Below, piece by piece: positions 2,993 to 50,484 of a DNA stretch of 64,000 bases (positions are counted from its first letter, which is position 1; the number at the start of each line of letters is the position of its first letter). The position numbers and the translations under genes were made by a program. The notes under the pieces are model-generated. The model had not been told where the DNA came from. It made no database searches and worked only from the letters and a program-made list of their open reading frames with translations. Origin of the DNA: Patescibacteria group bacterium (GTDB taxonomy: Bacteria; Patescibacteriota; Doudnabacteria; UBA920); assembly GCA_013387205.1 (NCBI GenBank), contig WARV01000010.1, positions 765 through 64,764 of the forward strand, written 5' to 3'.

Positions 2993-5065
2993 CTAAATAT
3001 TTTCTTTTACTATTTTTATAATTGCATTCTTGTCTATTTCTTCGTAAGCCAAAAGCTCGTCTGGCTTGCCGCTCTTGGGTTCTTTTTTTACGGCAAGGGA
3101 TACCACTTTTACCTCTTCTCCTGGCAAGGAGAAGGTGCCGAAGGCGGATGAGGTCGAATCATTACTGCTAGTTCGACCTCTCTGTCCCTGCGGGACATCT
3201 CCCCTCGCCAGGGGAGAAGGAACACAAAGAGCGGAAAGCACCGCCTCGCCGAGCCCGCCTTCTAAGTGATGGTCTTCAACTGTAATTATTGCTTTGGTTT
3301 CCAGCGCGGCTTTTTTAATTGTTTCTATATCAATTGGCTTAATGCTGTATAGATCTATCACGCGGATGTTAATATTTTCTTTTTGCAGTTCCTCGTAAGC
3401 AGACAGCGCTTCATGCAAAGTTATGCCGGCACCAATTACCGTGATTTGATCAGTATCCGATGATCTTAGAGTACATGCCCCCCCGATCCTAAATTCATGA
3501 TGAATTAATTTTTGTTCATTTTTGTCATTTTCGTCGTTTTCGTCGTTTTTGTCATTTGTGTACAATATTTTCGTTTCTTTTCTGGTTGTCCTAATATATA
3601 CCAAGCCGTCGTGCCCTGCTGCGGCTGCCACTAATTTTTCGGTTGAAACGGCATCAGAAGGATACAACACAACCGATCCGATTAGCGAACGGAACATGGC
3701 AATATCTTCAAGGCCCATTTGGCTTACCCCATCTTCGCCAATAGACACTCCTGCGTGAGAGCCGCAAACTTTGATATTGCTATGGGCATACTGGCTCATG
3801 CGAACCTGGTCGTAAGCACGGGACAAAAACGCGGCAAAAGTGGACACGAACGGGATTTTGCCGCGGCGGGCAAAACCCATAGCGGCTCCAACCATATTTT
3901 GCTCGGCAATATACATTTCAAAAAACCTGTCCGGCGCGACTTTCTTAAAAGCATCGGAATAAGTTGAATTGGAAACTTCGGCATCAAGCACCACCATATT
4001 CGGATAAGCATCCGCTAAATTTGCCAAAGCATTGCCATAAGCTTTTCTTGTCGCTGTCGGCTTTTCGTAATTTGAAAAATTAATATCACCTGCTGCAATT
4101 CTCCCCTCCTGTAAAGGAGGGGTGGCTGCGTTAGCAGACGGGGTGGTAGATAATTGTTCTGGAATTGCCACCTGACCAACAATATTTTTATCAACATCCC
4201 CTAATTCTTGCAACGCGCGATTTAAATCCTCGGCCGACAACGGCTTTCCATGCCATCCGTCCTTGTCTTCCAAAAACGACACACCTTTGCCTTTTACAGT
4301 TTTTGCGATTATCATTGTAGGACGACCGTCCTGTAGCGGGCGGATAGTATCCGCCCCTACAGCCATTTCCAAAGCCTTATTTATCTGCTCAAAATCATGC
4401 CCGTCAATAACCATGGTTTTCCAGCCAAAAGACTCAACCCGCTTTTGGTAGGTGTCTGTGTCCCAACCAAGCATGGTTTCCCCTCTCTGGCCCAAACGAT
4501 TGCAATCCAAAATTCCTATCAAATTATTCAGATGGTAATGCGAAGCAGCCTGCAAAGCTTCCCACACGCTGCCTTCGGCCATTTCACTGTCGCCAAGCAT
4601 GACGTAAGTTTTATATGATAATTTATCAAGTTTGGCATTAAGCGCCATGCCAAGCCCGACCGATAAACCTTGGCCTAAAGATCCTGTAGGCACTTCGGTA
4701 TACGGAAAAGCCAAAGTCGGATGCCCCTCCAAACGCGAACCAAACTTTCGCAGTGTCATCAGTTCTTCTGGATTGATTGCGCTCTGTAGCGGGCGGATAC
4801 TATCCGCCCCTACACCTGCTGTTTTTCCTGCTACCGCATATAGTGAATACAAAACAGGCGCTGCATGCCCTTTGGACAGAATAAACCGGTCGTTATTTGC
4901 ATACTCGGGATTATCTAAATCTGCCTTGAAAAATCCATTAAAGAATAAAGCGGTCAATAAATCTGCCGCTGACATAGCCGAAGTCGGATGCCCGCTGCCT
5001 GCTTTCGTGGTAGAAGTTAAAGAATAGTAACGGATTAGCTTGGCTAATTTTTGCAAGTCTTGCAT
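2993..5065 (-). CDS. tkt: transketolase
   Basis: N-terminal SGHPTSAMSAADL and GHAAP thiamine-diphosphate motifs; pyrimidine-binding and C-terminal domains present. Carries several in-frame inserts (see findings). Confidence 0.9.
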   Translation of the reverse strand: MQDLQKLAKLIRYYSLTSTTKAGSGHPTSAMSAADLLTALFFNGFFKADLDNPEYANNDRFILSKGHAAPVLYSLYAVAGKTAGVGADSIRPLQSAINPEELMTLRKFGSRLEGHPTLAFPYTEVPTGSLGQGLSVGLGMALNAKLDKLSYKTYVMLGDSEMAEGSVWEALQAASHYHLNNLIGILDCNRLGQRGETMLGWDTDTYQKRVESFGWKTMVIDGHDFEQINKALEMAVGADTIRPLQDGRPTMIIAKTVKGKGVSFLEDKDGWHGKPLSAEDLNRALQELGDVDKNIVGQVAIPEQLSTTPSANAATPPLQEGRIAAGDINFSNYEKPTATRKAYGNALANLADAYPNMVVLDAEVSNSTYSDAFKKVAPDRFFEMYIAEQNMVGAAMGFARRGKIPFVSTFAAFLSRAYDQVRMSQYAHSNIKVCGSHAGVSIGEDGVSQMGLEDIAMFRSLIGSVVLYPSDAVSTEKLVAAAAGHDGLVYIRTTRKETKILYTNDKNDENDENDKNEQKLIHHEFRIGGACTLRSSDTDQITVIGAGITLHEALSAYEELQKENINIRVIDLYSIKPIDIETIKKAALETKAIITVEDHHLEGGLGEAVLSALCVPSPLARGDVPQGQRGRTSSNDSTSSAFGTFSLPGEEVKVVSLAVKKEPKSGKPDELLAYEEIDKNAIIKIVKENI
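4331..4362. repeat. 32 bp GC-rich palindromic mini-element inserted in frame in tkt (copy 1)
   Basis: Sequence ctgtagcgggcggatagtatccgcccctacag; encodes VGADTIRPLQDGR within transketolase. Confidence 0.7.
4784..4814. repeat. 32 bp GC-rich palindromic mini-element inserted in frame in tkt (copy 2)
   Basis: Sequence ctgtagcgggcggatactatccgcccctaca, nearly identical to copy 1 and in the same orientation; encodes GVGADSIRPLQSA. Confidence 0.7.
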
Positions 5066-5134: not shown

Positions 5135-5255
5135 TACCATACTTCTACTAAATACTAAAAGGTACTAAATATACTAAATCACATCAAATATACTTAATTG
5201 ATATCACTGCTAGTATATAGCTTTAGTATATTTAGTATTATTTCGTATTTAGTAG
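5135..5255. repeat. family A intergenic palindromic element (termini ctactaaatactaa / ttagtatttagtag)
   Basis: About 120 bp AT-rich element with perfect 14 bp terminal inverted repeats and internal complementary arms; fills the tkt/upstream-gene intergenic gap. Copies also at 18374, 18789, 19758, 32183 and 63707. Confidence 0.7.
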
Positions 5256-5260
5256 AGCTT

Positions 5261-6931
5261 TTAGTATCCGTTAATCCCAAACATGGATTTGGGCAATTCG
5301 AATTTGGAGATAATCCCCTGGTTTTGCTGGTTTCTTTTTAAAAAGACAATATTATAGCCATCCACGAACACCGGCGCCCATAACGGGTCATGAACCCGGC
5401 TGATTAGAAAGCTCTGCGCCCAAGGGGTAAAATCGCGGTGGGAAAAAATTATGACATTAAAATTTTCTTGTCTTTCCAGTTCCTGCCAGGCCTGCGCGTT
5501 ATCCTGGGCCGGGATATAGATTTTCTGCAAAAAATCCACGGAATAAGCTTCCGGGCGGTTATCAACGAAAACTTTTTCTTTGGGGAATAAATGGAAGATT
5601 AAATAACCGCCAATATCGTAGTCGTTAAAAATAGGGCCTTGAATATTATTTTGTTTGATAAATTCAGCCGAAGCATTCACGTAAGGCATTAAGCCAATTC
5701 CCATAGCCGAAGTCTTCTCGGAAAATTTCAGATAGTCGCGGTAGCCGCTGCCTAAAATAATAAGCAGGCAGATTGCAATAAAATACGCGTGACGAATATC
5801 AAGGGGTATCCTTGATCTGATCAAGGATGCCCCTTGATACAACGCATTGATGTTGTAGGCTAGAATAGGGATAATGAATAACCCGAAAAACGGAAAATTA
5901 CGGATGCCGAACACTGCCATCACCGAAACAATAAAAAAAATGGCAAACAGCGGCCAGGAAAATTTTTTCCTTTGGAAAAATATCACCAAAATAAAACTTA
6001 TAACCCCTATTGCCAGCACTGCTTTGAACAAAGAAAAATTCAACCCGGCCGTGTGGTTAAGCCTTTCCAAAAACCGGACGGACTGGTTTTCAACGACCAA
6101 GTAACCGTAGTTGTTAAAAATCTGCAAAGGATAGAGCGCGCCTTTAATGAAGTTAGGATTAACTAGCGCGGCTAAACCAGAGACTATACCAGTCAGCAAT
6201 AAATTCTTATCAAAAATTTCGTAAAAATCGCGGCCGCGATTTTTACGAAATCGGTTGTCTACCAGAGACCTTGTGGCACTGCTTACAAAAAACACAAAAA
6301 TCAGCAGCAAGCCCATAAAAAACCCGATGTGTAAGTTTACCCAAATAAGCATTAATACTGGCAATAAATACAACCATCGTTTTTTAGTTTTATCCGCGTT
6401 TATATCCGCGGCTGCAGTATCAGATCCGCGTGCAATCTGCGGATTATAATACACCCACAGCACAAAGAAAAATATCCCGGTAAAAAGATAGGTAAACATT
6501 TCCGGGCGCACTTCCGCGCGCGTGGCAAACAATGGCATAACCAAAACACTTGCAGCAATAGCTAAAAGCCAGCCGCCCATCTTTTTTGCCAGGAAAAAAT
6601 ACACGGCAAAAGTACTTATGCCGAGCAGGATGTAAAATGCTGACAGGCCGGAAAATCCCAAAATTTTCCATACCAGGAAAAACACCACCCCGCTCCCCCA
6701 GTGGTGGTTGATAAACGAAAAGCCAGGCTCAGTGTAGGAATAAAAATTTGTCTTAAAGATATTTTGAGAAAAACCGGAAAGTATAATTTCCCCATTCTTG
6801 ATATGCCTGCCCAAATCCGCGGTAGTCAAATCTATCTTCTGGGCAAAATAAAGCCCGCACCAAGACAATAGGATGATGACGCCTAAGATTTTAAGGATAT
6901 TTGATATTATTTTGGTTTTACTATTAGCCAT
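5261..6931 (-). CDS. polytopic membrane protein, glycosyltransferase family 39 / PMT_2 (ArnT-like) candidate
   Basis: 556 aa with many predicted TM helices N-terminally and a soluble C-terminal region. Carries an in-frame 42 bp nested palindrome at 5798..5839. Confidence 0.4.
   Translation of the reverse strand: MANSKTKIISNILKILGVIILLSWCGLYFAQKIDLTTADLGRHIKNGEIILSGFSQNIFKTNFYSYTEPGFSFINHHWGSGVVFFLVWKILGFSGLSAFYILLGISTFAVYFFLAKKMGGWLLAIAASVLVMPLFATRAEVRPEMFTYLFTGIFFFVLWVYYNPQIARGSDTAAADINADKTKKRWLYLLPVLMLIWVNLHIGFFMGLLLIFVFFVSSATRSLVDNRFRKNRGRDFYEIFDKNLLLTGIVSGLAALVNPNFIKGALYPLQIFNNYGYLVVENQSVRFLERLNHTAGLNFSLFKAVLAIGVISFILVIFFQRKKFSWPLFAIFFIVSVMAVFGIRNFPFFGLFIIPILAYNINALYQGASLIRSRIPLDIRHAYFIAICLLIILGSGYRDYLKFSEKTSAMGIGLMPYVNASAEFIKQNNIQGPIFNDYDIGGYLIFHLFPKEKVFVDNRPEAYSVDFLQKIYIPAQDNAQAWQELERQENFNVIIFSHRDFTPWAQSFLISRVHDPLWAPVFVDGYNIVFLKRNQQNQGIISKFELPKSMFGINGY
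5798..5839. repeat. 42 bp nested palindrome inserted in frame in the membrane protein gene
   Basis: Sequence atcaaggggtatccttgatc t gatcaaggatgccccttgata; encodes QGASLIRSRIPLDI. Confidence 0.65.
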
Positions 6932-6940
6932 GCCTGCAAA

Positions 6941-7072
6941 TTTCTAATTGACCTAATTAACCTAATTATTCTAAATAAATCCCAAAACCTAATGCCTAAT
7001 TTAGAAATTGGGAATTGGTGCTTGTTTAGGTTAATTAGAAATTAGAATAATTAGAATAATTTTAAATCCGCC
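6941..7072. repeat. family B intergenic low-complexity hairpin element (ctaatta / taggtta / attagaa words; terminus aattgacctaatta)
   Basis: Built from permuted short words arranged as imperfect inverted halves. Related copies at 43774, 44392, 45900, 48691, 51018, 52668 and 62843. Confidence 0.6.
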
Positions 7073-10578: not shown

Positions 10579-13050
10579 TCAAATTTCTGACGGCCTGTTA
10601 TCCAAGTAAAATCTTTTTACCAAAACTGCCAAAGCCAGCAAAGATAAAATCGCTATAACCAGATATTTTATTCCAACGATTTTTTTGTTGGTTGGATTAT
10701 TTTTTCCATCACTGGCTAAAGCTTTGGTCGGCTCAATTGATGGTATTGCCAAATCATCCAGCTTGTTGTTTAAATCTACAACCTGTTGCTTTAAATTTTG
10801 AATTTCCTGCAGCATCTGTTCGCTGTTTTTTAAAGCCAGCGCGTAAGCTTTGTTTAACTCCTTGTCGCTTACGGTCTTTTTTACTGCAGATGCTTCTTTT
10901 TGCGAAGCACTGCCGGTTGCGGCAGAAAGAACCATCTCGTTAGGTTTTCCTGGCGTAGGTTTTTCTGTCCACAAATACTCGTCCCCTGCCGTCTGCGCGT
11001 AAGCCATACCCATTTCCGCTTTGCCATAAGTTACTTTGTCAATCTCCCTTCCCAAAAAGTCGGTTAAAGAAACGCTCTGGCCGGAGTTCCTTAACTTGGC
11101 CGGTAATTCATCTTCGTAAACAGCATAAAACTCCCCGGGCCTTAACACGCTCTGAGTATCCAAAATTTTACTGCTGTTTCCTAAATGCAGCACCAACCCT
11201 GCCAAAGGATACTCCTTCTCTCCGACATTTTTTATTTCCACAAATTCTTCATCATTTTTTTCAGGATACGGTAAAATTTCAGTAATGATAATTTTTGGCA
11301 GTTCAATGTCAGCTGCATTCTTTTGCCCGGGAGTCGGTATGCCATATTGCCATTTGCCCGATGAGTCTTTGCTGTAACTTTGCCCTTCCGGCGCTTTTTC
11401 AAAACCAACCTGTTCAACTAACTGCCTGGCTGGATTAAACAGCCTGACCGTATCTTTAGTATTATCCAAAGAAAATTTATCTTCCGGAATATTTAAAACA
11501 AAATAGCTTTCCGCCAAAATTATGGCTTTGTCATCTAAAGTCCAGGCAGATGAACCAATGGCACCGTCGCCATCGTCCAAAATAAAGCCTTTCAGGCTAA
11601 CATTGTCCTTGCTGCTGTTAAAAATTTCTACCCATTCTTTGCCGTCGTCAGCGCCTACGGGATTGGCCATTATCTCATTAATAAAAATTCCGGGGTTAGA
11701 AAAAATGCTTTCTGCCGGCAAAAAATTTTTCTGTCCAAGAGTCGGACTTGCCCACGCCCATTTGCCGGAAATTTTTTGCAAAGATTTTCCTTCCGGCGCA
11801 GCGTCGCTGTAGCTGGCTTTGTCAGCCAATGTTTTGTCTGTAAAATACAAGTTTGCCTCGTCCCCGCCCGTGTTGTTAAACGCAAAATAACCTTTGGGGA
11901 TAACAAAGACGGCAAACGCGCCAGGATTGATGATTGTAGGCGGCAATTGGTAAGCGTTGGATTTTACTCCGCTGTCGCTTTTATCGCCAAGGTACCAACC
12001 TCCGACGTCAACCGCTTCAGCCCCGATATTTTCCAGCTCCACCGCTTCCTTGCCGCTGTCATCGCCGGGAGGATTGGCGTAAATTTCCGAAAGTTTAATG
12101 AAACCGGGTTTGCTTTGGCTGGTCTGGACTGCCGCGCTGCTTCCGGAATTATTCTGGTTGTTTTCCTGCTGGTCTAAGGCCGGCGTAGTGGTGGAATTAT
12201 TTTGGTTATCAGTCAGCGTATCGGTGGTTGAAGTTGTTGTGGTGGCCTGGGGCGGGGTAAAATTTTCCGGAAATGTTATGGAAATATTGCGCGGGGAAGA
12301 ATTGGCAATTATGAAATTTTGCGATGGCGATAATAAATCCTGCCTAACTAGCGCTTGCCCGGCTCCGGGATTTTCCGTAGAAACCACGGTAAAGCCGTTT
12401 AACGCGCTCCCCCATGCCACGCTATCAATAATTTCTCCGCTGTCGCTTGCGCCAAGGCGGATGGCAACTCCGTTATTATCGGCAATACTCGCCGAAGTGG
12501 CCGAATCCGGCGCAATTGGAATAGCCGAATAAGAAGAGTTCGCCCACAAATAAAAACCTCGAGCCGGAATTATAGTATCGTCGGTCCAGGATTTTATCAA
12601 AGAATCCAGGCTGCCGGCAGAGGCAGTCCTTTTTACCAGCCTATAGCCTTTTAAATTAAAACTTGTATCACTTTGGTTATATAGCTCAATGAAATCGTCA
12701 GTCGTGTGTCCTGTCCCGCCGGTAATTTGGATTTGGGATATCGCTACAGAAGCAGCTGTCACCACTCCCGGCAGCAAGAAAAATATTGAAAAAAATAAAA
12801 CTGGAAGTGGTCTCAAAACTTGGCTGTAAGGCGATATTTTAGAATTTCGAGACAGTCGGGCAAAACAAATTTTGATGCTTAGCCTCCGGCTAAGCAGAGA
12901 AATTTTTATGGCCGAATGGAGCTTTAATGGCAATCTGGCTCTGCCAGTTGCCAGCTTAACCCCGAAATTATGAAATTGCAGCCAAAATGAAGTTTTGAAA
13001 CCGCTTCCTAAAAACTTTTGTTGTCCCTTGGCGCTTTTAGTACTCTCCAT
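10579..13050 (-). CDS. surface protein with four lamin-tail-domain (LTD) repeats, a low-complexity T/S/N/Q linker, a coiled coil and a C-terminal TM anchor
   Basis: LTD repeats of the form NP-GxDxGKE-VEL-N-G...DxxGW-L recur four times. The real start is probably an alternative codon near 12830, because the signal-like segment LRPLPVLFFSIFFLLPGVVTAAS lies internally. Confidence 0.7.
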   Translation of the reverse strand: MESTKSAKGQQKFLGSGFKTSFWLQFHNFGVKLATGRARLPLKLHSAIKISLLSRRLSIKICFARLSRNSKISPYSQVLRPLPVLFFSIFFLLPGVVTAASVAISQIQITGGTGHTTDDFIELYNQSDTSFNLKGYRLVKRTASAGSLDSLIKSWTDDTIIPARGFYLWANSSYSAIPIAPDSATSASIADNNGVAIRLGASDSGEIIDSVAWGSALNGFTVVSTENPGAGQALVRQDLLSPSQNFIIANSSPRNISITFPENFTPPQATTTTSTTDTLTDNQNNSTTTPALDQQENNQNNSGSSAAVQTSQSKPGFIKLSEIYANPPGDDSGKEAVELENIGAEAVDVGGWYLGDKSDSGVKSNAYQLPPTIINPGAFAVFVIPKGYFAFNNTGGDEANLYFTDKTLADKASYSDAAPEGKSLQKISGKWAWASPTLGQKNFLPAESIFSNPGIFINEIMANPVGADDGKEWVEIFNSSKDNVSLKGFILDDGDGAIGSSAWTLDDKAIILAESYFVLNIPEDKFSLDNTKDTVRLFNPARQLVEQVGFEKAPEGQSYSKDSSGKWQYGIPTPGQKNAADIELPKIIITEILPYPEKNDEEFVEIKNVGEKEYPLAGLVLHLGNSSKILDTQSVLRPGEFYAVYEDELPAKLRNSGQSVSLTDFLGREIDKVTYGKAEMGMAYAQTAGDEYLWTEKPTPGKPNEMVLSAATGSASQKEASAVKKTVSDKELNKAYALALKNSEQMLQEIQNLKQQVVDLNNKLDDLAIPSIEPTKALASDGKNNPTNKKIVGIKYLVIAILSLLALAVLVKRFYLDNRPSEI

Positions 13051-13080
13051 ATATTTTTTTATTTTTAATGATTATTTCTA

Positions 13081-13116
13081 TTCCCGGAAAACGAGCGATC
13101 GCTCGTTTTCCGGGAA
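13081..13116. repeat. perfect 36 bp palindrome ttcccggaaaacgagcgatcgctcgttttccgggaa (CGATCG core)
   Basis: Read directly; lies 10 bp 3' of the PaaX-like gene stop. Confidence 0.8.
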
Positions 13117-13126
13117 TGGGTTGGTT

Positions 13127-13681
13127 TTAAAGTTTAAAAAATTTTTTTATATTTTCATCATTATCAATCTGGTCAATACGAAAGATGCGTATATATTCAT
13201 CCAAACCTGTCTCGTATAAATACCTAATCGCATCACGATTTAAAGGATAAGGGTTTATATACACACTTCTCTGGATTTGCAAAAACCCATGATTCTTTAA
13301 CAAAATTCTCAACAATCTTCTTTTATCTTTTGCCTTCTCCGGTATGTCAAAAACCACCATCCTAAATTTTCCATCCCATTTCTCAGGTTTCTTAATATCA
13401 GCCTTTAATAACAATGTTTCCAAAACACCCTTTTTTGTTAATTTAACATACTGATAACCTTTTTCTTTGAAAATTTTTATCCAATGCTTCTGCTCCAAGG
13501 TATTTAAGATATTCAAATAACTTTTATAAGGCACATAGCCTGAAACCTGACGCTTGAAAAATGCCGTTTTGCTTTCAAAAGGTCGTGGAAATAAATCTAC
13601 CACGGCAAATAACGTCAGCAATAACTTTGCTGAATTGGTCAGCTCTCTTTCTTGTGTATTGTATTTTTTTCTTTTTTTCAT
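13127..13681 (-). CDS. winged-HTH + PaaX_C/Cas2-like domain protein (PaaX-like family), paralog 1
   Basis: The C-terminal motif W-DGKFRMVVFDIPE...R..LR..L...GFLQIQRSV..NPYP matches the PaaX C-terminal (Cas2-like) domain. Paralogous to 29713..30261. Confidence 0.5.
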   Translation of the reverse strand: MKKRKKYNTQERELTNSAKLLLTLFAVVDLFPRPFESKTAFFKRQVSGYVPYKSYLNILNTLEQKHWIKIFKEKGYQYVKLTKKGVLETLLLKADIKKPEKWDGKFRMVVFDIPEKAKDKRRLLRILLKNHGFLQIQRSVYINPYPLNRDAIRYLYETGLDEYIRIFRIDQIDNDENIKKFFKL

Positions 13682-13702
13682 GTTAATCTAGTTAATCTCT
13701 CG

Positions 13703-13738
13703 TTCCCGGATTTCGAGCGATCGCTCGTTTTCCGGGAA
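13703..13738. promoter_or_regulatory. 36 bp near-palindrome ttcccggatttcgagcgatcgctcgttttccgggaa, 22 bp upstream of the paralog-1 start codon (candidate operator)
   Basis: Same arms and core as 13081..13116 with an aaaa->attt change in one arm. Confidence 0.6.
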
Positions 13739-13795
13739 TTGGTTTTTATTTTGATAATTTTAAAAGCACTATCAAAATATGGTAGTGCTTTACTT

Positions 13796-14499: not shown

Positions 14500-14620
14500 G
14501 GATTTTCTCCGAAAATTCACCCTGAGCTTGCCTGCCACTCCGAAGCTTTAGCGGAGGGGGGTCGAAGGGTAAATAAATTTAAATATTTATATTAAGTAAA
14601 CAAATTATATCGAAAACCGG

Positions 14621-14660
14621 CAATTTTGTCAAAAGAAAGAGGCCAGGACACGCTAGCGTG
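14621..14660 (-). terminator. rho-independent terminator of the GC-rich orphan gene
   Basis: Perfect hairpin aggccaggacacgc-tagc-gcgtgtcctggcct followed on the minus strand by CUUUCUUUUG. Confidence 0.5.
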
Positions 14661-14685
14661 TCCTGGCCTTATGCATCGACTAAGG

Positions 14686-15015
14686 CTAACCCCCTGTTGC
14701 CGGCAATACATCTTCCAGCATATGAAGCTGGAAGGACCTGGTCTGCACGAGGTCTGGAGCAGGTCTGAGCCCCCTCTTTATATCTTTTCGTCTAAGCACC
14801 CCGGATTCTTTTACTCTCCCGGCTACATTAAACAACTCAGTCTCGAAAGCCGATTGTCTGGCTCTATCTTCTGTGAGGACTTCAACGGCTCCGGGAAGAG
14901 TATGGTCGATGGTACTCCCGATAAAGAGAGCCCATCTTTCCAAACCCTCGTCGGCTCGCGTTTCAACGTCCTTGCCCGTTGGTATTAACAACTCCCAACA
15001 AACATCATCTTTCAT
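14686..15015 (-). CDS. hypothetical protein in a GC-rich (about 52%) islet
   Basis: 109 aa; strong RBS AAGGAGGAAGG 7 nt upstream of ATG; own terminator. No recognisable family. Confidence 0.45.
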   Translation of the reverse strand: MKDDVCWELLIPTGKDVETRADEGLERWALFIGSTIDHTLPGAVEVLTEDRARQSAFETELFNVAGRVKESGVLRRKDIKRGLRPAPDLVQTRSFQLHMLEDVLPATGG

Positions 15016-15317
15016 TCTCTTTCCTTCCTCCTTGATGCTGAACTACATCTTGGCTACAATTACTTACAACCAAAATGCAATTTACATCATTAAATTATTT
15101 TAATGACAAATATTTTATTAGTAAAGTGGATAACTTTGTCTGTATCTGCGTAATCAGCCCCGAAGGGGCCCCTTCGGGGCGCATCCGCGATTTTCCCTCT
15201 AATCCGCCGGCGAGACAGGAAAATTAACTAAAACTTTTATCATAAGATAACAATTTTAGTTAACCTCACCAGCGGGTTAGAAAGAAAAGGTGGAAGGGAG
15301 TAGAATCAAACACGATA

Positions 15318-15443
15318 CTACTCCCTACTTTTGGGTTCATTCCATGGCAGGAATGGGAATCCAAAGATGAAATGGATGAACCTATTCAGCAGAAATACTG
15401 CCGCAGGAACTCCAAAAACCCAATAACAAATCGTTTCAGGCAT
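15318..15443 (-). CDS. small hydrophobic peptide 2 (41 aa, MPETICYWVFGVPAAVFLLNRFIHFIFGFPFLPWNEPKSRE)
   Basis: Start overlaps the peptide-1 stop (TAATG). Followed by the terminator hairpin gggagtag-N14-ctactccc plus a U-run. Confidence 0.4.
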   Translation of the reverse strand: MPETICYWVFGVPAAVFLLNRFIHFIFGFPFLPWNEPKSRE

Positions 15444-15571
15444 TAACCGTTCTCCTTCAACTCCTTGAAAATCTGCACAACTCGCCTGATCTCTTTTTTC
15501 AGCCACAATATAACAATTGCGGTAGACAGCAAGATTGCCATAACCACAACAATATATCCTGCTCTTTCCAT
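15443..15571 (-). CDS. small membrane peptide 1 (42 aa, MERAGYIVVVMAILLSTAIVILWLKKEIRRVVQIFKELKENG)
   Basis: RBS GGAGGAGG 5 nt upstream of ATG. One TM helix plus a charged tail. The track ORF 15318..15584 would translate the RBS itself. Confidence 0.4.
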   Translation of the reverse strand: MERAGYIVVVMAILLSTAIVILWLKKEIRRVVQIFKELKENG

Positions 15572-15644
15572 ATTCCTCCTCCAATCCTTTAAACCAATTT
15601 ACTACAAGAAAAACTTTTTGGCAAATTGGCTTACAGGCTTGGAG

Positions 15645-15686
15645 AAAAAATTGGAGGATAGCGCTTTCCCAGAAGCGCTATCCTCC
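15645..15686 (-). terminator. 14 bp-stem hairpin ggaggatagcgctt-N7-aagcgctatcctcc followed by a T-run on the minus strand
   Basis: Read directly; lies upstream of the small-peptide cassette. Confidence 0.4.
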
Positions 15687-16250
15687 TTAAGTTAGGAGAG
15701 GATCAAACAGCTAACGCAAAAGTATAATTCCCCTGTTGGCAAAACCTTCTTATATTAAGCTGGTTTTAAAACAAGCTCTAATTATTTCCACAATTGTGGG
15801 TCTAAAGCGATGAGGCCAAAGTATCAAGCGATACTTATAAAGTTTGCCTTCCTGTTAGGCCCACGATAGTGAAGATAATTCTACCAATCTACCAATAAAT
15901 ACTAATCTACTAATACCTACAAATCCTTTTTAGTATGCATTAGTAGGCATTGGTAGTATTCGGATAGATTCGTAGATTGGTAGATATTTGTAGAATGATA
16001 AAACCGTATATTCGATACAGGAGAATCAATAAAAAATTATTCTTGTATGCAATATACGGCTTTTAGATGCCCCCAATTCGGTTTACCGAGATTAGGAGCA
16101 CGTGGCCATTCTGCATAATTTCCTGTAAATCACACAGACTAGATTTTTGTTACAGCAATAGAGTAACCATATAATATACACTAAAACCGCCCTTTTGTCA
16201 AGACTTTGGGCGGTTTTTGTTGTTATTTTGGCTTATTTAAGCCCAATATA

Positions 16251-18355: not shown

Positions 18356-18373
18356 AATATTTCTCCGAAATTT

Positions 18374-18456
18374 CTACTAAATACTAATTCTTACTAAAAG
18401 TACTAAATTTTACTTAAATGGCTTTCGTATCTTTAGTACATTTTCGTATTTAGTAG
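18374..18456. repeat. family A palindromic element in the groES-groEL intercistronic gap
   Basis: Termini ctactaaatactaa ... tatttagtagag. Joined to a conserved uucggagaaauAUG RBS segment. Confidence 0.7.
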
Positions 18457-18466
18457 AGATTATTAT

Positions 18467-18772
18467 TTATTCAACTATTGCTAACACATCAGATTCATCC
18501 TTTTCTTTTCCGACGTAAAGAATTTTGTATTCGTTCTTCTTGCCGTCTTCATCCATTTCAACTTCATCGCCGGCATACTTGCCAAACACTACAGTGTCGC
18601 CGACCTTAAGCCCTAAAGAGGCAATTTCGCTGCCGGTCCCCAGTTCCATAATTTTTCCCTGGGCTTTTTTTTCTTTATCTGCAGTGTCCGGCAAAACAAT
18701 CCCGCTCTTGGTTACTTCCTCGCTTGAGAGCTGTTTTACCAGGATCCGGTTTCCTAAAGGTTTTACTTTCAT
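18467..18772 (-). CDS. groS: co-chaperonin GroES
   Basis: 101 aa; canonical GroES. Confidence 0.95.
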   Translation of the reverse strand: MKVKPLGNRILVKQLSSEEVTKSGIVLPDTADKEKKAQGKIMELGTGSEIASLGLKVGDTVVFGKYAGDEVEMDEDGKKNEYKILYVGKEKDESDVLAIVE

Positions 18773-18788
18773 AATTTCTCCGAAATCT

Positions 18789-18899
18789 CTACTAAATACT
18801 AAAAGGTACTAAATATACTAAAATATCATCAAAAAGGCTTAATTGATACCGCTATTGATTTTTGATTTAGTATCTTTAGTATTATTTCGTATTTAGTAG
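18789..18899. repeat. family A palindromic element in the groES 5' UTR
   Basis: Same termini as the other A copies. Confidence 0.7.
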
Positions 18900-18935
18900 A
18901 AGCATTAATTTTCCTAATTTATTTTATAGCAACAC

Positions 18936-19747: not shown

Positions 19748-19757
19748 CCTCTTCTCT

Positions 19758-19868
19758 CTACTAAATACTAAAAAGTACTAAACATACTAAAGCTATATAC
19801 CAGTATTGATATCAGTTAAGTCTATTTGATGATATTTAGTACATTTAGTATTAATTAGTATTTAGTAG
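19758..19868. repeat. family A palindromic element between convergent genes
   Basis: Termini ctactaaatactaa / ttagtatttagtag. Confidence 0.7.
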
Positions 19869-19879
19869 AAAGATTAGTA

Positions 19880-20791
19880 TTATCCAAAAAACATCCTCAA
19901 CAAATCCTGCTGCTTACTTAACGGATGGAATGATAGTTCGTCATCTTTAACCACAATAAACTTTTCCTGGCGGATTTTGGGAAGCTGCCAGCTTTTTAAT
20001 ATTACCTCAAAACTCGCGCCAAACTTGTTATCAAAAATTCTTTCCAAAAATTTCTGGTATCGCGATGCTTTATCCTGGATGCAGAAAAACGTAACATTTG
20101 GAAAAAAAATATTAATCCAGCTTAGGTTTTTCATTTGAAAATCGTAAATAGCGCTGGCAAAAACCAAAGGGCGGAGCTTGGCATATTCCCAAGCCGTGTA
20201 TAAATTCCTAAAGCCATCCATTTGTTTTTGCCCCACTATATAATGGTTCAGGCAGAACCGGTTGGAAATTTTATTCCCATGCCGCCTTAAACCTAAAAAT
20301 TGGAAATAAGCCGTTATCAAAGTCCTTGCCAACCATAAAAATTTGTGAGATACGATAATGAACAAGTCGATATCTGAATTTGGTTTTTGAAATCCCTGTG
20401 CCTGGCTGCCGGTTAAACCTACTCCCCTTATGAACGGAATGAGCCTAAGGCCCGAAATGTATTTCCTGATTAATTTTTCCCTGATAATCCCGTAGCTATA
20501 ATTTTGCAGCCTTTTTTCTACAATTTCCCGCTTTCCCGGCAAATAATAAAATCCTTTATCATTTAAAACTTGGCTGCCGCACTCAGTATCCAAGCATTTT
20601 AAAACATCGCTGATTGATACTTGGCTGGAATTTTGTTGTAGATTAATATCATTTAATTCCCATTGGCTGTCGAGTGAAGTTTTAAGGTCTGTTGTTTCGG
20701 AAATTAAAAAACGATGGAGTTCCAAAAGGGTCAAAGGAGTCTCCATTAAATCAAAAAAACGCAAAGTTGAAAGGATACGATTTTTTAACAT
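19880..20791 (-). CDS. nucleotidyltransferase-domain protein (Pol beta superfamily)
   Basis: G-S-x9-13-D-x-D-like motif GSQAQGFQKPNSDIDLFIIV. Confidence 0.45.
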   Translation of the reverse strand: MLKNRILSTLRFFDLMETPLTLLELHRFLISETTDLKTSLDSQWELNDINLQQNSSQVSISDVLKCLDTECGSQVLNDKGFYYLPGKREIVEKRLQNYSYGIIREKLIRKYISGLRLIPFIRGVGLTGSQAQGFQKPNSDIDLFIIVSHKFLWLARTLITAYFQFLGLRRHGNKISNRFCLNHYIVGQKQMDGFRNLYTAWEYAKLRPLVFASAIYDFQMKNLSWINIFFPNVTFFCIQDKASRYQKFLERIFDNKFGASFEVILKSWQLPKIRQEKFIVVKDDELSFHPLSKQQDLLRMFFG

Positions 20792-22414: not shown

Positions 22415-23407
22415 CTACTTTTGGCATTTCGGGCAAAACGAACCGGTGCGTCCGCCAATCTTCATCGACTGGATTACTGTGCCGCAAACTTTACATTTCT
22501 CCCCTGCCCGGCCGTAAACGAAATGAAATTTTCCCATTTGCCCCCAAGAGCCATCTGTCCTTATAAAATCCCCAACCGACGAGCCCTTAGCTTTAATCGC
22601 CTGCTTTAAAACTTTTTGAATGTTTTGATAAATACCCCTTAATTCTTGATTCTTAATACTTGATACTTTCCTGTCCGGCCTGACTTTGGCATGAAATAAA
22701 ATCTCATCGCTATAAATATTGCCAATCCCCGCCACTACTTTTGGATCCATCAAAACCTGTTTGATTTTCCCCTTCGGACGTTTTTTCACGGCCGTGAAAA
22801 AACGTCCCCATATGAATTCTTTGTTTAACGGCTCGGGGCCGTATTCCGAAAGTTCTCTAACTTGATCAATCTCATTATCGCGCACCAATTTTAAATACCC
22901 AAACTTACGTACGTCGTTAAAATACAAAGTTGATCCATCTGTAAATTTAAATATCACGTGCGTGTGCTTGCTTGGCAACTGGACCAATGGAGCATTAGAT
23001 GAATTAATCAGGCGATATTTTCCACCAGTTTTTTGCCGCAGTTTTTTATCCTCAAAAATAAACTGCCCGGTCATTTTTAAATGTGCCAAAATAGAAAGCG
23101 ATCCGCTTGTCCGACGTAGCCTTGCATTGCCCGCCGAAGCTTTATGCGAAGGCTGGGGCGAAGTTGGAGATAAATCAAAAATCAAAAGTTTGGCCCTGCG
23201 CTTAACCGACAAAATCTTTTTTCCAATCAGCAAATCAGAAAATTTTTTTACCTGGCCATTTTTGACTTTCCTGACATTACTAACGACATCCGGTCCAATT
23301 TGCACCATCTTTGGCGCATTAACAAAAACCGACTTAATAGCCTTGTTTTTTAGCTTTTTATTTAGTTCATTTACAATGGTTTGGACTTCTGGGAGTTCAG
23401 GCATCAA
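22415..23407 (-). CDS. mutM: formamidopyrimidine-DNA glycosylase (Fpg/MutM) with an inserted repeat
   Basis: N-terminal MPELPEVQT; C-terminal zinc finger CKVCG...GRTGSFCPKCQ. An in-frame 26 aa GC-rich insert (SPTSPQPSHKASAGNARLRRTSGSLS) lies at 23086..23165. Confidence 0.85.
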   Translation of the reverse strand: MMPELPEVQTIVNELNKKLKNKAIKSVFVNAPKMVQIGPDVVSNVRKVKNGQVKKFSDLLIGKKILSVKRRAKLLIFDLSPTSPQPSHKASAGNARLRRTSGSLSILAHLKMTGQFIFEDKKLRQKTGGKYRLINSSNAPLVQLPSKHTHVIFKFTDGSTLYFNDVRKFGYLKLVRDNEIDQVRELSEYGPEPLNKEFIWGRFFTAVKKRPKGKIKQVLMDPKVVAGIGNIYSDEILFHAKVRPDRKVSSIKNQELRGIYQNIQKVLKQAIKAKGSSVGDFIRTDGSWGQMGKFHFVYGRAGEKCKVCGTVIQSMKIGGRTGSFCPKCQK

Positions 23408-24440: not shown

Positions 24441-24927
24441 GATTTTTCAGACTTGAAAGTTCAGTTTTTCAGTATTCCATCTTCCGTATTCCGTTTTCCG
24501 TCATGCAATAATGATTGCGTTCTTGGGTAGACGCAAGCAGGAGGAGGAATATACCCAATTATTATGCAAAAAATAGAACATCGTTCTATGGATAATGCAA
24601 AAAGATCATGAAAGCCCGCTAGAGGAACCAGATGTGTTTCTCGCGGGCTTTTCATATTGAAAATATTCCCATTCTCCGTCATAATAAGTATAATGGTTTT
24701 TGGTTAAATTACAGGGTGTTATCCAAACGGCTAAATCGATTATTTACTGCGTTTTAGCCGTTCTCCTTCCCTGTAAAGGGAAGGTGGCTTGCGAAAACAA
24801 GCCGGAAGGGTATGACAATAATTTGATACCACCTCCCTCCACTTTTACGTGGAGTACTCCTCCTTAGAAAGGAGGAGAGAAGGTTACACCAGCACCCAGT
24901 TCGCAATAACGATAACGTTAAAATGAT

Positions 24928-26433
24928 ATGCAGAATTTTTTAAAGTCCATACCCCATAAATTCACGGCCAAGGAAGAGCAGATTTTGCAAAAGGCTTTTG
25001 AATTTGGCAATAATGCCCACAAAGGCCAAAAGCGCAAAAACGGCGACGACTATTTCACGCATCCGGTCGGCGCTTCAATTATTTTAGGGCAAATTTTCCC
25101 GGATACCCCAACCTTAGCCGCCACCCTCCTTCACGACGTACCAGAAGACACGGGCATGTCTTTGGAAACAATCGAGAAAGAGTTCGGCAAGGAAGTCGCC
25201 AGGCTGATTGACGGCGTCACTCAGCTCGGCCACGTCAGGTTCAAAAGCAGCAAGGACAAATACTACGTGGAAAATTTGCGTAAACTGTTCATTGCCACCA
25301 GCCAGGACATCCGGGTTATTTTAATCAAGCTTGCCGACCGCTTGCACAATATGCGGACCATAGAATTCATCCCTCCGGAAAAACAGAAAAAAGTGGCCAT
25401 GGAAACTTTGGAGATGTATTCCCCTATTGCCGGCAGGCTTGGCATAGGAGCCTGGAAAGACGAGCTGGAAGATTTGTCTTTTAAAATTGTCTTTCCCAAG
25501 GAATTCGAGGAAACAAAAAAACTTCTGGAAGACGAGCTAAAAAAACGAAATGAAAATTTAAAAGACATGCAAAAGCGCCTGGGCCACACTTTGCGTACCG
25601 AAGGGATCAAATATTTGGAAATTACCGGCCGCGTCAAACGCCTTTATTCTTTATATAATAAACTCAAGCGCTACAAAGGCGACATAAGCAAGATTTACGA
25701 TATCATGGCCTTAAGGATCATTACCAAATCCACCGCAGATTGCTATGCTGTCTTAGGCGCCATTCACAAACACTTCCAGCCCGTACCGAACAGAATTAAA
25801 GATTTTATCGCCACGCCAAAACCCAATGGCTACCAGAGCATACATACTACAGTTTTCGACAAGAACGGCAGCATTATGGAAATCCAAATCCGCACGGATT
25901 TGATGCACGAAGAGGCCGAGCGCGGAATTGCCGCCCACTGGTTTTATTCGGAAGAAGGCAAGCCGGAAAACAGCGGCCCAATGAAGCCTTCCTGGATTGC
26001 CGAGCTTCAGGCCTGGCACGAAGAAGACACTAACCCGGACGAATATTTGGAAAGGTTGAAAATAGATTTTTTCCGCGACCGCATTTTCGTGTTCACGCCC
26101 AAAGGCGACATTAAAGATTTGCCGCACGGCGCCACGGTTATAGATTTTGCCTTTGCCGTGCATAGCGATTTAGGCTACCACATGATGGGCGCCAAGATAA
26201 ACGGAAAGATGGCCAGCATCTACGACGAGCTTTCCCAGGAAGACGTGGTAGAAATTATAAAGAGCAAAAAGCCGGCAACTATTTCCCGCGACTGGCTGGA
26301 CGCGGCCAAAACCAGTGGCGCGCGCAACAAAATCCGCCACTACCTGAACGAGCATGATAAAGGGATAATCCAAAGGGTAAAAGAACTCAAGCTACAGGAT
26401 TTCAAAATTGCGAGGTTTTTCAGAAAGAAATAG
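24928..26433 (+). CDS. RelA/SpoT-family (p)ppGpp synthetase/hydrolase (RSH)
   Basis: HD domain (HDVPEDT), synthetase domain (RIKDFIATPKPNGYQSIHTTV) and TGS domain. Confidence 0.9.
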   Translation: MQNFLKSIPHKFTAKEEQILQKAFEFGNNAHKGQKRKNGDDYFTHPVGASIILGQIFPDTPTLAATLLHDVPEDTGMSLETIEKEFGKEVARLIDGVTQLGHVRFKSSKDKYYVENLRKLFIATSQDIRVILIKLADRLHNMRTIEFIPPEKQKKVAMETLEMYSPIAGRLGIGAWKDELEDLSFKIVFPKEFEETKKLLEDELKKRNENLKDMQKRLGHTLRTEGIKYLEITGRVKRLYSLYNKLKRYKGDISKIYDIMALRIITKSTADCYAVLGAIHKHFQPVPNRIKDFIATPKPNGYQSIHTTVFDKNGSIMEIQIRTDLMHEEAERGIAAHWFYSEEGKPENSGPMKPSWIAELQAWHEEDTNPDEYLERLKIDFFRDRIFVFTPKGDIKDLPHGATVIDFAFAVHSDLGYHMMGAKINGKMASIYDELSQEDVVEIIKSKKPATISRDWLDAAKTSGARNKIRHYLNEHDKGIIQRVKELKLQDFKIARFFRKK

Positions 26434-29675: not shown

Positions 29676-29692
29676 ATATAAACAAAAAAGCG

Positions 29693-29724
29693 TATCAAAA
29701 ATGAGCGGCCGCTCATTTTTGATA
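29693..29724. repeat. perfect 32 bp palindrome tatcaaaaatgagcggccgctcatttttgata (GCGGCCGC core), overlapping the stop of PaaX-like paralog 2
   Basis: Read directly. Confidence 0.8.
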
Positions 29725-30261
29725 CGGTAATTTAAACCTCTCTCTTAATTCCCTATCGTCATCCATCTGGTCCACTCTGATAATCCTGACAAAATCCATT
29801 AACCCTGTTTGTTTTAAATATTCTACTGCATGGCTATTTAAAGGATAGGGACTTATAAAAACACTTGCCTGCAATTTCACAAAATTGTTTTGCTTTAATA
29901 ACCTTCGAAATCTATTCCGTTCCCATTTAAAAGCTTCGGGAATATCAAACATTATCAATCTCCATTTATTATCCCAGGGTATAAAAGCGCGCAATTTTGC
30001 CATCAACATTAAATAATGAAGGTATCCATTCTTTGTTATTCTTAAAAACTTTTTATTGTTTTTCTCTACAACTTCTACATCATTACGTTTTTTTAACCTA
30101 GAGACTACCGTGCGATAATAATCCGGGTCGAAATTTTTAACTCTTCTGCTCCAGGCATATGGTGATTCAAAAGGAACAGGTAACATATGTGCCGCCTCCA
30201 CTAAAAACTGAAGGACACCATCCACTATCGATAAAGTTATGTTTTGAGTTTGTTTTGCCAT
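29713..30261 (-). CDS. winged-HTH + PaaX_C/Cas2-like domain protein (PaaX-like family), paralog 2
   Basis: WRLIMFDIPE...R.RFRRLL...NFVKLQASVFISPYP; paralog of 13127..13681. Confidence 0.5.
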   Translation of the reverse strand: MAKQTQNITLSIVDGVLQFLVEAAHMLPVPFESPYAWSRRVKNFDPDYYRTVVSRLKKRNDVEVVEKNNKKFLRITKNGYLHYLMLMAKLRAFIPWDNKWRLIMFDIPEAFKWERNRFRRLLKQNNFVKLQASVFISPYPLNSHAVEYLKQTGLMDFVRIIRVDQMDDDRELRERFKLPYQK

Positions 30262-30282: not shown

Positions 30283-30318
30283 TGTATCACTTTTGAGCGG
30301 CCGCTCAAAAGTGATACG
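30283..30318. promoter_or_regulatory. perfect 32 bp palindrome tatcacttttgagcggccgctcaaaagtgata, 22 bp upstream of the paralog-2 start (candidate operator)
   Basis: Same outer ends and core as 29693..29724; the inner arm has a compensatory aaaa/cttt change. Confidence 0.6.
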
Positions 30319-32164: not shown

Positions 32165-32182
32165 GATAGTTCTTACATTCTC

Positions 32183-32294
32183 TACTAAATACTAATATAT
32201 ACGAAAGATACTAAAGCTTTATACTAATAGTGATATTAATTAAGTATACTTAGATGATATTTTAGTATATTTAGTACTAATTAGTATTTAGTAG
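32183..32294. repeat. family A palindromic element
   Basis: Termini ctactaaatactaa / ttagtatttagtag. Confidence 0.7.
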
Positions 32295-32299
32295 AAGTA

Positions 32300-43615: not shown

Positions 43616-43773
43616 TAATATCACCTCTTTCTTTAGTATAGACCACTGATACGCAGATAATCGCAGATTACACAGATGCAGTTATCTGCGTCATCAGTGC
43701 AAATCTGTGTATCTGCGGTCTTATTTCTTACCTAACTATAATATATTTCCCGATTTTGGTCAAACGGAACGAG

Positions 43774-43917
43774 AATTAACCTAATTATTCTAATTTCTAA
43801 TTAACCTAAACAAATCCCAATTTCTAACTACCCAATTTCCTAATTTCTGATATTTTAGTCATTGGTTATTAGTCATTGTTTAGACTAATTAGGTCAATTA
43901 GGAATTAGGTTAATTTA
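43774..43917. repeat. family B intergenic element
   Basis: Words ctaatta / taggtta; terminus motif cctaattgacctaattag. Confidence 0.6.
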
Positions 43918-44326: not shown

Positions 44327-44391
44327 GGAAGTTATGTTAATATTAATAGGTTCGTAATTATTTAATAATTATTTTTATTACAAAAATTGCA

Positions 44392-44542
44392 AATTCCTAA
44401 TTATTCTAATTGTTCTAATTGACCCCGGGTCAAGCCCGGGGCAGGCTCTAAATAATGTCTAATGACCCAATGTCTAAAATTTGGATATTAGGATTTAGGA
44501 TTTGTTTAGAAATTAGGTCAATTAGGTTAATTAGAAATTATC
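44392..44542. repeat. family B intergenic element with a GC hairpin core (ccccgggtcaagcccgggg)
   Basis: Read directly. Confidence 0.6.
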
Positions 44543-48693: not shown

Positions 48694-48905
48694 CCTAATT
48701 ATTCTAATTATTATTAACTCATCCTGTCCTTCTCTTTAGCAAAGAGAAGGAACCAGCTTAGCAAGGCTATAATCTAGCTTAGTATGTACTCCCTCTTTAT
48801 CATAAGAGGGAGACAGAGGGAGTTAGTATTAGGAATTAGGAATTGGGATTTGTTTAGTCCGCCAGCTGGCGGAAATTAGGTTAATTAGGTTAATTAGGTC
48901 AATTG
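48691..48905. repeat. composite family B element containing CTCCCTCTTT-loop-AAAGAGGGAG hairpins
   Basis: ctaatta word arms plus internal hairpins ccttctcttt-agca-aagagaagg and ctccctcttt-atcat-aagagggag-acagagggag. Related composites at 51018 and 52668 (the latter inverted). Confidence 0.6.
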
Positions 48906-48948
48906 TTATCAAAGAATTTTAAAGTAAATCATTAACATTATTCATCCC

Positions 48949-50286: not shown

Positions 50287-50307
50287 AAGTTATCCATACC
50301 ACACAAT

Positions 50308-50346
50308 ACAAAGAGACTCTTCGCTCAGAGCGAAGAGTCTCTTTGT
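50308..50346 (+). terminator. family E perfect 16 bp-stem terminator acaaagagactcttcgct-cagag-cgaagagtctctttgt
   Basis: Near-identical copy with a different loop at 60166..60203. Confidence 0.65.
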
Positions 50347-50484
50347 ATGCGATGCAAAAAATTACAGACCAATCTTCGGTTGGCCCATTTGTAATCAAAA
50401 TGAATTATTTGTTATAATTATTCTACAAACAAACCTTTCAGCGTTAATATCCGCGTAGCTGATCCGCGTTAAGATCAGAGGAAC

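Follow-up and report, generated by a model that had tools for sequence, protein, structure and literature searches.

The 64,000-nucleotide stretch of DNA analysed here (hereafter, the window; positions 765 to 64,764 of the forward strand of contig WARV01000010.1, assembly GCA_013387205.1) comes from a Patescibacteria group bacterium of the Doudnabacteria lineage and carries two paralogous genes, A and B. Each encodes a small protein that combines a predicted N-terminal winged helix with a Cas2-like domain, and each lies between two copies of its own long palindrome. Such bracketing by private palindromes is a trait of the family to which these genes belong. The features of the two loci, numbered from the first letter of the window, are as follows:

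13127 to 13681, minus strand: gene A, 184 aa, N-terminal winged helix followed by PaaX_M (Cas2-like), without PaaX_C
13080 to 13117, no strand: palindrome A-down, perfect, 38 bp, zero-loop, ATTCCCGGAAAACGAGCGA followed by TCGCTCGTTTTCCGGGAAT, with a CGATCG core
13703 to 13738, no strand: palindrome A-up, a copy of A-down with 3 mismatches (ATTT replacing AAAA on one arm)
13748 to 13775, minus strand: inferred promoter-like site TTGATA-16-CAAAAT, from a consensus scan only, just upstream of A-up
10579 to 13050, minus strand: LTD-protein gene, next after gene A
29713 to 30261, minus strand: gene B, 182 aa, with the same two-domain build as gene A
30284 to 30317, no strand: palindrome B-up, perfect, 34 bp, cognate to B-down, its edge 22 nt from the ATG
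29691 to 29726, no strand: palindrome B-down, perfect, 36 bp, with a GCGGCCGC core, covering the last 14 nt of gene B including the stop codon

Two bracketed genes and their proteins

The initial annotation described gene A as flanked by a perfect 36-bp palindrome downstream and a near-identical copy 22 nt upstream. Palindromes are indeed present on both sides, but the downstream one is a perfect 38-mer with the 36-mer inside it, placed 9–10 nt from the stop codon and 29 nt from the ATG of the LTD-protein gene, and the upstream one, because of its 3 mismatches to A-down, is not a perfect palindrome and ends 21 nt from the ATG. Gene B, said to be flanked in exactly the same way, also has a palindrome on either side, but B-down is a 36-mer that overlaps the end of the reading frame with its stop codon, and B-up is a 34-mer. 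The equal upstream spacing proposed for the two loci holds for the distance from the palindrome centre to the ATG, which is 39 nt at both, but not for the edges (21 vs 22 nt); the cores, CGATCG at gene A and GCGGCCGC at gene B, are as had been stated. The two copies at gene B share the outer arm GTATCA and the core GAGCGGCCGCTC and differ in a 5-nt A/T block (AAAAT vs CTTTT), which is altered on both arms, so that the change is compensated. On the gene strand, B-down is followed by CTTTTTTGTT and, 15 nt further, by the ATG of ComEC.

Within the window, the A and B palindromes are each confined to their own gene (at up to 3 mismatches; shuffles are expected to give 0). The other long perfect hairpins, some 25 in number, are mostly ordinary bidirectional terminators of the form AAAACCCCGC...GCGGGGTTTT, with a GC-rich stem and flanking A/T tracts, that is, of a different build from the palindromes at genes A and B. 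No Rfam family matched at the palindromes. Two candidate observations were dropped: a third, decayed paralog at 24869-24964 (tblastn E 0.012) proved spurious, its translation being stop-riddled and unrelated, and an apparent avoidance of CGATCG, as if by restriction (2 sites seen vs 11 expected from base composition), vanished against the higher-order expectation of 1.6.

Proteins A and B are 36% identical over 176 residues. The initial annotation had them as a winged helix-turn-helix (wHTH) joined to a Cas2-like domain, which sequence profiles support for the Cas2-like part and the fold comparison for both parts. Both proteins match PF20803, PaaX_M ('PaaX central Cas2-like domain'), at E 1.1e-18 and 1e-18 (67.5 and 67.6 bits, the cut-off being 24). 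A proposed domain search for a PaaX_C/Cas2-like part thus recovered the Cas2-like PaaX_M but not PaaX_C: in the Pfam scan of A and B, PaaX_C was unmatched and both proteins end right after PaaX_M, and the Pfam PaaX N-domain was unmatched at E <= 1. The PaaX equivalog model TIGR02277, which has a cut-off of 264.55, gave 27 and 32.7 bits. Both genes pass the NCBIfam cas2 model TIGR01573 (29.9 and 26.2 bits against 24.5) and gene B alone passes PF09827 (26.7 against 23.8); the Cas2 models align over only about their first 45 positions, that is, the first half. There is also a weak match to VapD. An AlphaFold model (predicted local distance difference test score, pLDDT, 74) has three helices and a beta-wing (H-H-H-beta-beta) followed by a beta-alpha-beta-beta-alpha-beta domain, and its top folds in the PDB are those of E. 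coli PaaX (8a39) and a Jannaschia PaaX-like protein (3l09), matched over both domains (141-163 columns), followed by many winged-helix regulators and Cas2. The motif R-hhh-FDIPE...R...L..GF..Q.SVY aligns with type II-A Cas2 (FDMP). In the alignment FDIPE is invariant and most invariant residues, including polar ones, lie in the Cas2-like half, the winged-helix half being variable; no invariant His-x-His (HUH) was found among the alignment columns.

The family is large: a profile search (E <= 1e-10) gave 3,351 representative clusters, and nearly all members of the best 150 have a length of 170-200 aa. Relatives carry the source labels 'CRISPR-associated endonuclease Cas2' or 'PaaX', names that follow from passing the TIGR01573 cut-off. 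No CRISPR-like interspaced repeat array is present in the 64-kb window, so that the 'Cas2' label is probably a systematic mis-annotation in metagenome-assembled genomes (MAGs) of the candidate phyla radiation; the genes flanking A and B are housekeeping rather than cas genes, although no window-wide cas1 search was made. An origin in phages or defence systems was considered and set aside, given that IMG/VR viral contigs held zero relatives, PADLOC returned only partial Cas2 matches and PHROGs nothing significant.

The Cas2-like features invite the view that these genes are single-chain, addiction- or toxin-like modules, with an active Cas2/VapD-like nuclease that the winged helix and the palindromes keep shut off at the level of expression. 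The aspartate of FDIPE (D112) occupies the same alignment column as the Asp that binds metal in type II-A Cas2 (motif FDMP), and at this place the PaaX-like protein 3kfw has VTSI; the concentration of invariant polar residues in the Cas2-like domain, the VapD match and the patchy distribution of an accessory gene (see below) are all in line with such a role. However, dimerisation and DNA contact would explain the conserved residues equally well and would fit the covariation of the inner arms described below, no antitoxin-like partner was found, and the partial nature of the PADLOC Cas2 matches speaks against it too. We regard an addiction module as distinctly improbable, although the invariance of FDIPE leaves some room for a nuclease role.

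Palindrome pairs across the family

For comparison, 80 homologous loci were taken from species-representative genomes, mostly Doudnabacteria or similarly placed MAGs, several of which have 3-5 paralogs; individual loci are cited below by L numbers. Palindromes were called as zero-loop inverted repeats with a half length of at least 10 and at most 1 mismatch. By this definition, the 22 kb that surround the starts and ends of the genes contain 78 palindromes, as compared with 16 in 385 kb of flanks, which amounts to an about 85-fold higher density. Of the 58 closer loci, 50 carry one or more palindromes; distant loci of the Parcubacteria type mostly have none. Further palindrome-gene-palindrome units, for which the initial annotation had proposed a search, do occur in related genomes. 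The core is CGGCCG in 63 of the 78 palindromes and CGATCG in the clade of gene A (L001-L004, L093).

The two copies at one locus are cognate: their arms are 79% identical (positions 4-16, counted from the centre), as compared with 36% between loci (99th percentile 69%) and 43% between same-genome paralogs (positions 4-18). The repeated unit measures 2x18 bp, the cognate identity falling abruptly to background at position 19. Within the unit, positions 1-3 (CGG) are family-wide, positions 5-9 are locus-specific and well kept, identity dips at positions 10-11, within the A/T block, and the outer positions 12-18 are again well kept. Of the differences between copies at positions 3-11, 43 are matched by a compensating change on the other arm and 12 are not. 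The mismatches that do occur in the palindromes show no G:U bias, and a wobble-tolerant RNA hairpin was accordingly rejected. Generic terminators or REP-like repeats were rejected as well, in agreement with the earlier view that the palindromes are cognate to their genes: besides the enrichment at gene ends and the uniqueness of each palindrome to its own gene in the window, U-tracts are lacking.

The argument that connects the palindromes with the proteins comes from covariation. For about 50 loci, arm identity in each pair was regressed on the identity of the N- and C-terminal domains, with the loci permuted. Identity of the outer arms (positions 12-18) tracks that of the winged-helix domain (coefficient 0.445, p < 0.0005), and identity of the inner arms (positions 4-11) tracks that of the Cas2-like domain (coefficient 0.32, p = 0.02); the regression gave no cross-effects, that is, neither of the C-terminal domain on the outer arm nor of the N-terminal domain on the inner arm. 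The same pattern is seen in each of the four arm subsets (up-left, up-right, down-left, down-right), with coefficients of 0.22-0.58 (p <= 0.014) for the outer arm and N-domain and 0.29-0.63 (p <= 0.03) for the inner arm and C-domain; that it holds for arms far from the matching gene half argues against simple linkage. A telling pair is that of L029 and L034, paralogs of one genome, whose N-domains are 88% identical and whose outer arm, AGTTGAT, is common to both, and whose C-domains are 63% identical and whose inner arms differ. The suggestion that protein and palindrome have become a specificity pair is supported by the domain-arm covariation and by the distinct sites of same-genome paralogs.

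The upstream palindromes also have a recurrent placement relative to promoters. Promoter calls here are consensus matches only. The upstream copy overlaps a sigma-70-like match at 23 of 44 loci, as compared with 8.9 +/- 2.6 (maximum 16) in shuffles, and does so in two registers: either the palindrome centre lies in the spacer, with the -35 element at -16 and the -10 element at +8 (as in L050, TTGACA-N17-TATAAT), or TTGACG of the left arm itself serves as the -35 element at -7, with the -10 element at +17. Such overlap upstream of a gene is the classic layout of an autorepressor. Among downstream copies, promoter-like matches are at background (12 of 45; shuffles 8.9), and the next gene is co-directional at 44 and convergent at 26 of 70 loci, and so the idea that the downstream palindrome is the promoter or operator of the next gene was discarded. 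Most downstream copies either overlap the stop codon or are found no more than about 30 nt away from it.

An alternative is that the palindromes work as RNA hairpins or DNA cruciforms, independently of the protein, as bidirectional terminators or insulators whose copies are kept alike by gene conversion. The near-perfect symmetry and the 43:12 excess of compensated changes would follow naturally, strong hairpins are predicted (-21.6 to -30.5 kcal/mol, with z-scores of -5.4 to -8.5), terminator-like calls were obtained for B-down, for A-down on the plus strand and for B-up on the plus strand, where the upstream gene is co-directional, its stop codon precedes the start of the upstream copy by a median of 37 nt, and palindromes of this class also occur within coding genes. 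B-down, an exception in the family, does fit the build of an intrinsic terminator. However, a T-tract (at least 6 T in the 9-nt tail) follows only 5% of the downstream copies, the remaining 95% being without it; A-down, which folds as RNA at -30.5 kcal/mol, is one copy with no U-tract after it on the gene strand. Counted from the centre, positions 1-6 have a GC content of 0.68, as compared with 0.18 for positions 7-12 and 0.38 for positions 13-18, with the GC thus high at the loop end and not at the stem base, and ordinary terminators of this genome are, as noted, built differently. Many upstream copies lie in a promoter spacer, so that a transcript from the gene's own promoter would contain only part of them. 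The lack of G:U tolerance and the covariation of arms with specific protein domains also count against a structure that acts by itself, and in L009 the palindromy has decayed while the two copies are still alike. Considering all this, a purely structural role of the palindromes appears rather unlikely.

We consider it reasonably probable that A and B are minimal PaaX-type dimeric autorepressors that bind both of their palindromes as DNA operators. Specifically, a dimer would bind the 36-bp (2x18) palindromic site as DNA, with the Cas2-like dimer lying over the central 22 bp and contacting the CGGCCG/CGATCG core and the locus-specific inner arms (positions 4-11), and with the two winged helices reading the locus-specific outer arms (positions 12-18). 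The upstream operator, overlapping or abutting the gene's own promoter, would mediate autorepression; at gene A, A-up would cover the start of a transcript from the TTGATA-16-CAAAAT site. The operator at the stop codon could act as a protein roadblock or a 3' boundary, perhaps in cooperation with the upstream site, and the two operators together would make the gene a self-contained, insulated unit between housekeeping genes. Same-genome paralogs would have diverged into protein/operator pairs that do not cross-react, and the strict symmetry may reflect an additional requirement for a cruciform or hairpin.

Several observations weigh against this autorepressor scheme or limit it. The predicted promoter of gene A lies upstream of A-up and not across it, and for gene B the promoter tool yields no promoter above threshold; a weak promoter-like TTGAGC-16-TACATA that spans B-up was read by eye and falls below the threshold of the tool. 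With the next gene convergent at 26 of 70 loci, it cannot be a general rule that the downstream site serves as the operator of a co-transcribed target. No helical phasing between the two sites was found (centre to centre 554-755 bp, median 595), and a DNA loop with helical phasing was therefore dropped, the aperiodic spacing being uninformative rather than contrary. No conserved partner gene or functional theme emerged among the neighbours across loci, and the proteins have no ligand-binding domain. The symmetry of the palindromes is stricter than protein contacts alone would require, and the 43:12 ratio suggests that base-pairing (cruciform, hairpin, template-switch repair) is being selected for or generated besides protein binding; template-switch correction of quasi-palindromes may be an alternative source of strict symmetry. 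Finally, the covariation test cannot fully remove shared ancestry and hence provides strong indirect evidence from sequences, not proof.

Inheritance, patchy presence and additional sites

The genomic settings of the family members indicate considerable age. Gene A lies in the order nusB-X-LTD protein-HU (X being the family member), with rpmF among its neighbours, and this order recurs in L001, with 69-90% identity of the neighbouring genes; gene B lies in the order X-ComEC-PPIase-ndk, which recurs in L058, and NhaP-X-CysRS is common to a group of seven genomes. A DUF167-like gene is also found among the A and B neighbours, and the neighbours at other loci are unrelated housekeeping genes such as CysRS, SecY and RNase HII. 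The recurring synteny implies that the paralogs are old and vertically inherited. Between species, the arms are nearly wholly different (A, TTCCCGG-AAAA-CGAG-CGATCG; L001, CTGGTC-AAAA-TTGGA-CGATCG).

Presence of the gene after nusB was followed in 80 metagenomic loci retrieved through NusB. The gene is present in the window, in L001, in L093 and, as a member of a different subfamily, in L081, and is absent in L082, L089, L090 and L092. Of these, L082 is an empty site, nusB-LTD-HU, with an ordinary terminator and without a palindrome, and L090 and L092 have the arrangement nusB-HU; all three are relatives as close as the window is to L001. The gene at L093:4526-5083 is a divergent PaaX_M-family member whose N-terminal segment is long, hydrophobic and transmembrane-like and whose palindromes have the CGATCG core; that at L081:757-1408 is a more distant member, again with a hydrophobic N-terminal segment, which stands behind a 44-bp CATATG palindrome and has AADIPT in place of FDIPE.

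This patchiness among close relatives brings up the possibility that the units are, or recently were, mobile or recombining cassettes, with the palindromes acting as recombination (att-like) sites or as ends cut by a Cas2-like nuclease. A gene bracketed by repeats, multiple paralogs per genome, insertion points between unrelated housekeeping genes, the invariance of FDIPE, which resembles the Cas2 active site, and the existence of solo palindromes would all be compatible with mobility. On the other side, no transposase, integrase, recombinase or other partner gene was found linked to the family loci; the same-genome paralogs, with an identity of only about 35-45% and with palindromes that differ, are not recent copies; gene A, gene B and the seven-genome group each show synteny across species; each palindrome copy is internally symmetric and not the attL/attR hybrid expected from a central crossover; and no homolog was found in IMG/VR viral contigs. 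The search for empty sites, which the initial annotation had suggested, produced one clear case, L082, and there an ordinary terminator takes the place of a palindrome. A mobile cassette therefore appears very unlikely, and the earlier preference for mobility or addiction over autoregulation is not supported in view of the promoter overlap (23 of 44 loci vs 8.9), the lack of a linked recombinase or partner and the old, syntenic paralogs.

Besides the four bracketing copies, the window contains two solo palindromes of the same class:

22776 to 22807: perfect, 32 bp, TTTTTTCACGG followed by CCGTGAAAAAA, in frame inside fpg/mutM
6216 to 6251: perfect, 36 bp, CGCGGCCGCG at the core, in frame within the gene for a membrane protein of 556 aa, at a loop of the protein

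The inner 24 bp of the fpg site equal the upstream palindrome of the L044 paralog. The ortholog in L009 (Fpg 71% identical) has a palindrome at the same position (L009:2551-2580), with an inner sequence similar to that of the window and with outer arms that are different yet symmetric. In a homolog of the membrane protein, this loop carries a palindrome of 38 bp that is unrelated (L159:129-166; cores CGGCCG vs AAGCTT). Such intragenic sites may serve paralogs from other parts of the genome as additional operators or roadblocks. L008 (117-160) and L039 each have a third cognate site, at a distance of 0.2-2.9 kb from the gene. In L039, the palindrome TTGGTAGACAAAACGTGCGGCCGCACGTTTTGTCTACCAA occurs three times (2755-2794, 3602-3640, 4006-4045) around the PaaX-like gene, at about -200, +76 and +480, with no convincing open reading frame (ORF) between the second and third copies.

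The window also holds repeats of other kinds. Intergenic inverted repeats of about 113-130 bp, in at least 6 copies (5144-5256, 18359-18471, 18788-18900, 19755-19883, 32181-32295, 63708-63815), have arms made of 9-bp-periodic TACTAAATA-like units (TCTACTAAATACTAAAAGGTACTAAATATACTAAA ... TTTAGTATATTTAGTATTATTTCGTATTTAGTAGA). Arrays in which CTAATTAAC/CTAATTATT units and the complementary form (ATTAGGTTA) recur with a 9-bp period, in many cases as pairs facing each other, occupy intergenic positions at 6943-7068, 43772-43906, 44390-44540, 48679-48911, 52666-52900 and 62829-62974 and look like multi-site binding arrays or promoter-region repeats. Two palindromes about 10 kb apart, at 50306-50348 (43 bp) and 60166-60203 (38 bp), have the arm ACAAAGAGACTCTTCGCT in common. 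Next to them are genes similar in size (about 415-445 aa), possibly a paralogous pair with a duplicated terminator. From rpmF to a small ORF, about 1.7 kb (14540-16250) are poor in ORFs and contain several long hairpins, at 14640-14669, 15157-15180 and 15653-15686; Rfam gave zero families there at the gathering threshold and only spurious matches to miRNA models at E <= 1.

Relation to known systems and implications

The closest characterized relative is PaaX of E. coli and Pseudomonas, which represses the paa operons of phenylacetate catabolism and responds to phenylacetyl-CoA. It is a dimer that represses its own promoter by steric hindrance and whose operator, TGATTC-N27-GAATCA, is a 39-bp inverted repeat with the half-sites at the outer ends (PMC9493321). 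Proteins A and B appear to share with it the succession of winged helix and PaaX_M and find in it their best fold match, and the 36-bp unit described here has the same geometry of outer half-sites. Unlike PaaX, A and B have about 180 rather than about 300 residues, lack the PaaX_C effector domain, score only 27-33 bits with TIGR02277, far under its cut-off, have no paa genes among their neighbours and retain the Cas2-type FDIPE; their sites, too, differ in being perfect, zero-spacer palindromes with a conserved CGGCCG core, placed at both gene ends.

The resemblance to Cas2 is that of the N-terminal beta-alpha-beta part, which aligns with type II-A Cas2 in FD(I/M)P...R...L..GF..Q.SVY. In Cas1-Cas2 complexes, the Cas2 dimer lies along a central duplex of about 23 bp, a length that resembles the 22-bp inner segment of the palindromes; this is to be taken as a lead and not as a test. 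Whereas Cas2 is a stand-alone protein of about 90-110 aa encoded beside cas1 and an array, the domain in A and B is fused to a wHTH of 95 aa.

Two further analogies concern the arrangement rather than the fold. The placement of a single gene between copies of its own cognate palindrome, with few copies elsewhere (L008:117-160, L039, the solo sites of the window), is reminiscent of repetitive extragenic palindromes (REPs) and their associated RAYT proteins. RAYTs, however, are relatives of HUH/Tyr transposases, and REPs, which form imperfect hairpins, number in the tens to hundreds; here the HUH motif is absent, there are only 2-3 copies per protein and the upstream copy is embedded in a promoter. 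In phage lambda, operators (OL, OR) lie on both sides of the cI repressor gene, and lambda cI, like the controller (C) proteins of restriction-modification systems with their C-boxes, would be comparable to A and B as a small autoregulated repressor with a private, co-evolving operator specificity. The fold is different, though, the context here is neither that of a phage nor that of restriction-modification, and the operators are single 36-bp perfect palindromes, about 595 bp apart and unphased. A literature search found no paper describing palindrome-bracketed PaaX/Cas2-like genes.

Taken together, these comparisons define an orphan, two-domain PaaX/Cas2-like family of putative repressors that is bracketed by private, co-evolving 36-bp palindromes and that is neither the PaaX equivalog nor the CRISPR Cas2. 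For annotation, this means that the labels 'Cas2' and 'PaaX' are probably wrong for the family and that the operator-gene-operator build offers a function that can be tested. The about 50 natural, orthogonal pairs of a protein and a 36-bp operator make up a data set on the recognition code of the PaaX/Cas2 fold and a source of orthogonal repressors. If the Cas2-like dimer indeed contacts the central duplex, this would bear on how Cas2 came to hold the protospacer duplex during CRISPR adaptation.

A bolder proposal, which we put forward tentatively and hold to be fairly improbable, is that the Cas2-like domain, more than serving passively for dimerisation, is a sequence-reading, possibly DNA-cleaving module seated on the central 22 bp and that the 'orphan Cas2' genes, widespread in bacteria of the candidate phyla radiation, are self-insulated, orthogonal protein/palindrome units with extra sites in housekeeping genes. 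If so, these units would represent either a free-living relative of Cas2 duplex binding or a new selfish or boundary element. The position-conserved, in-frame palindromes in fpg and in the membrane-protein gene suggest that the proteins or the palindromes act beyond autoregulation in these very small genomes.

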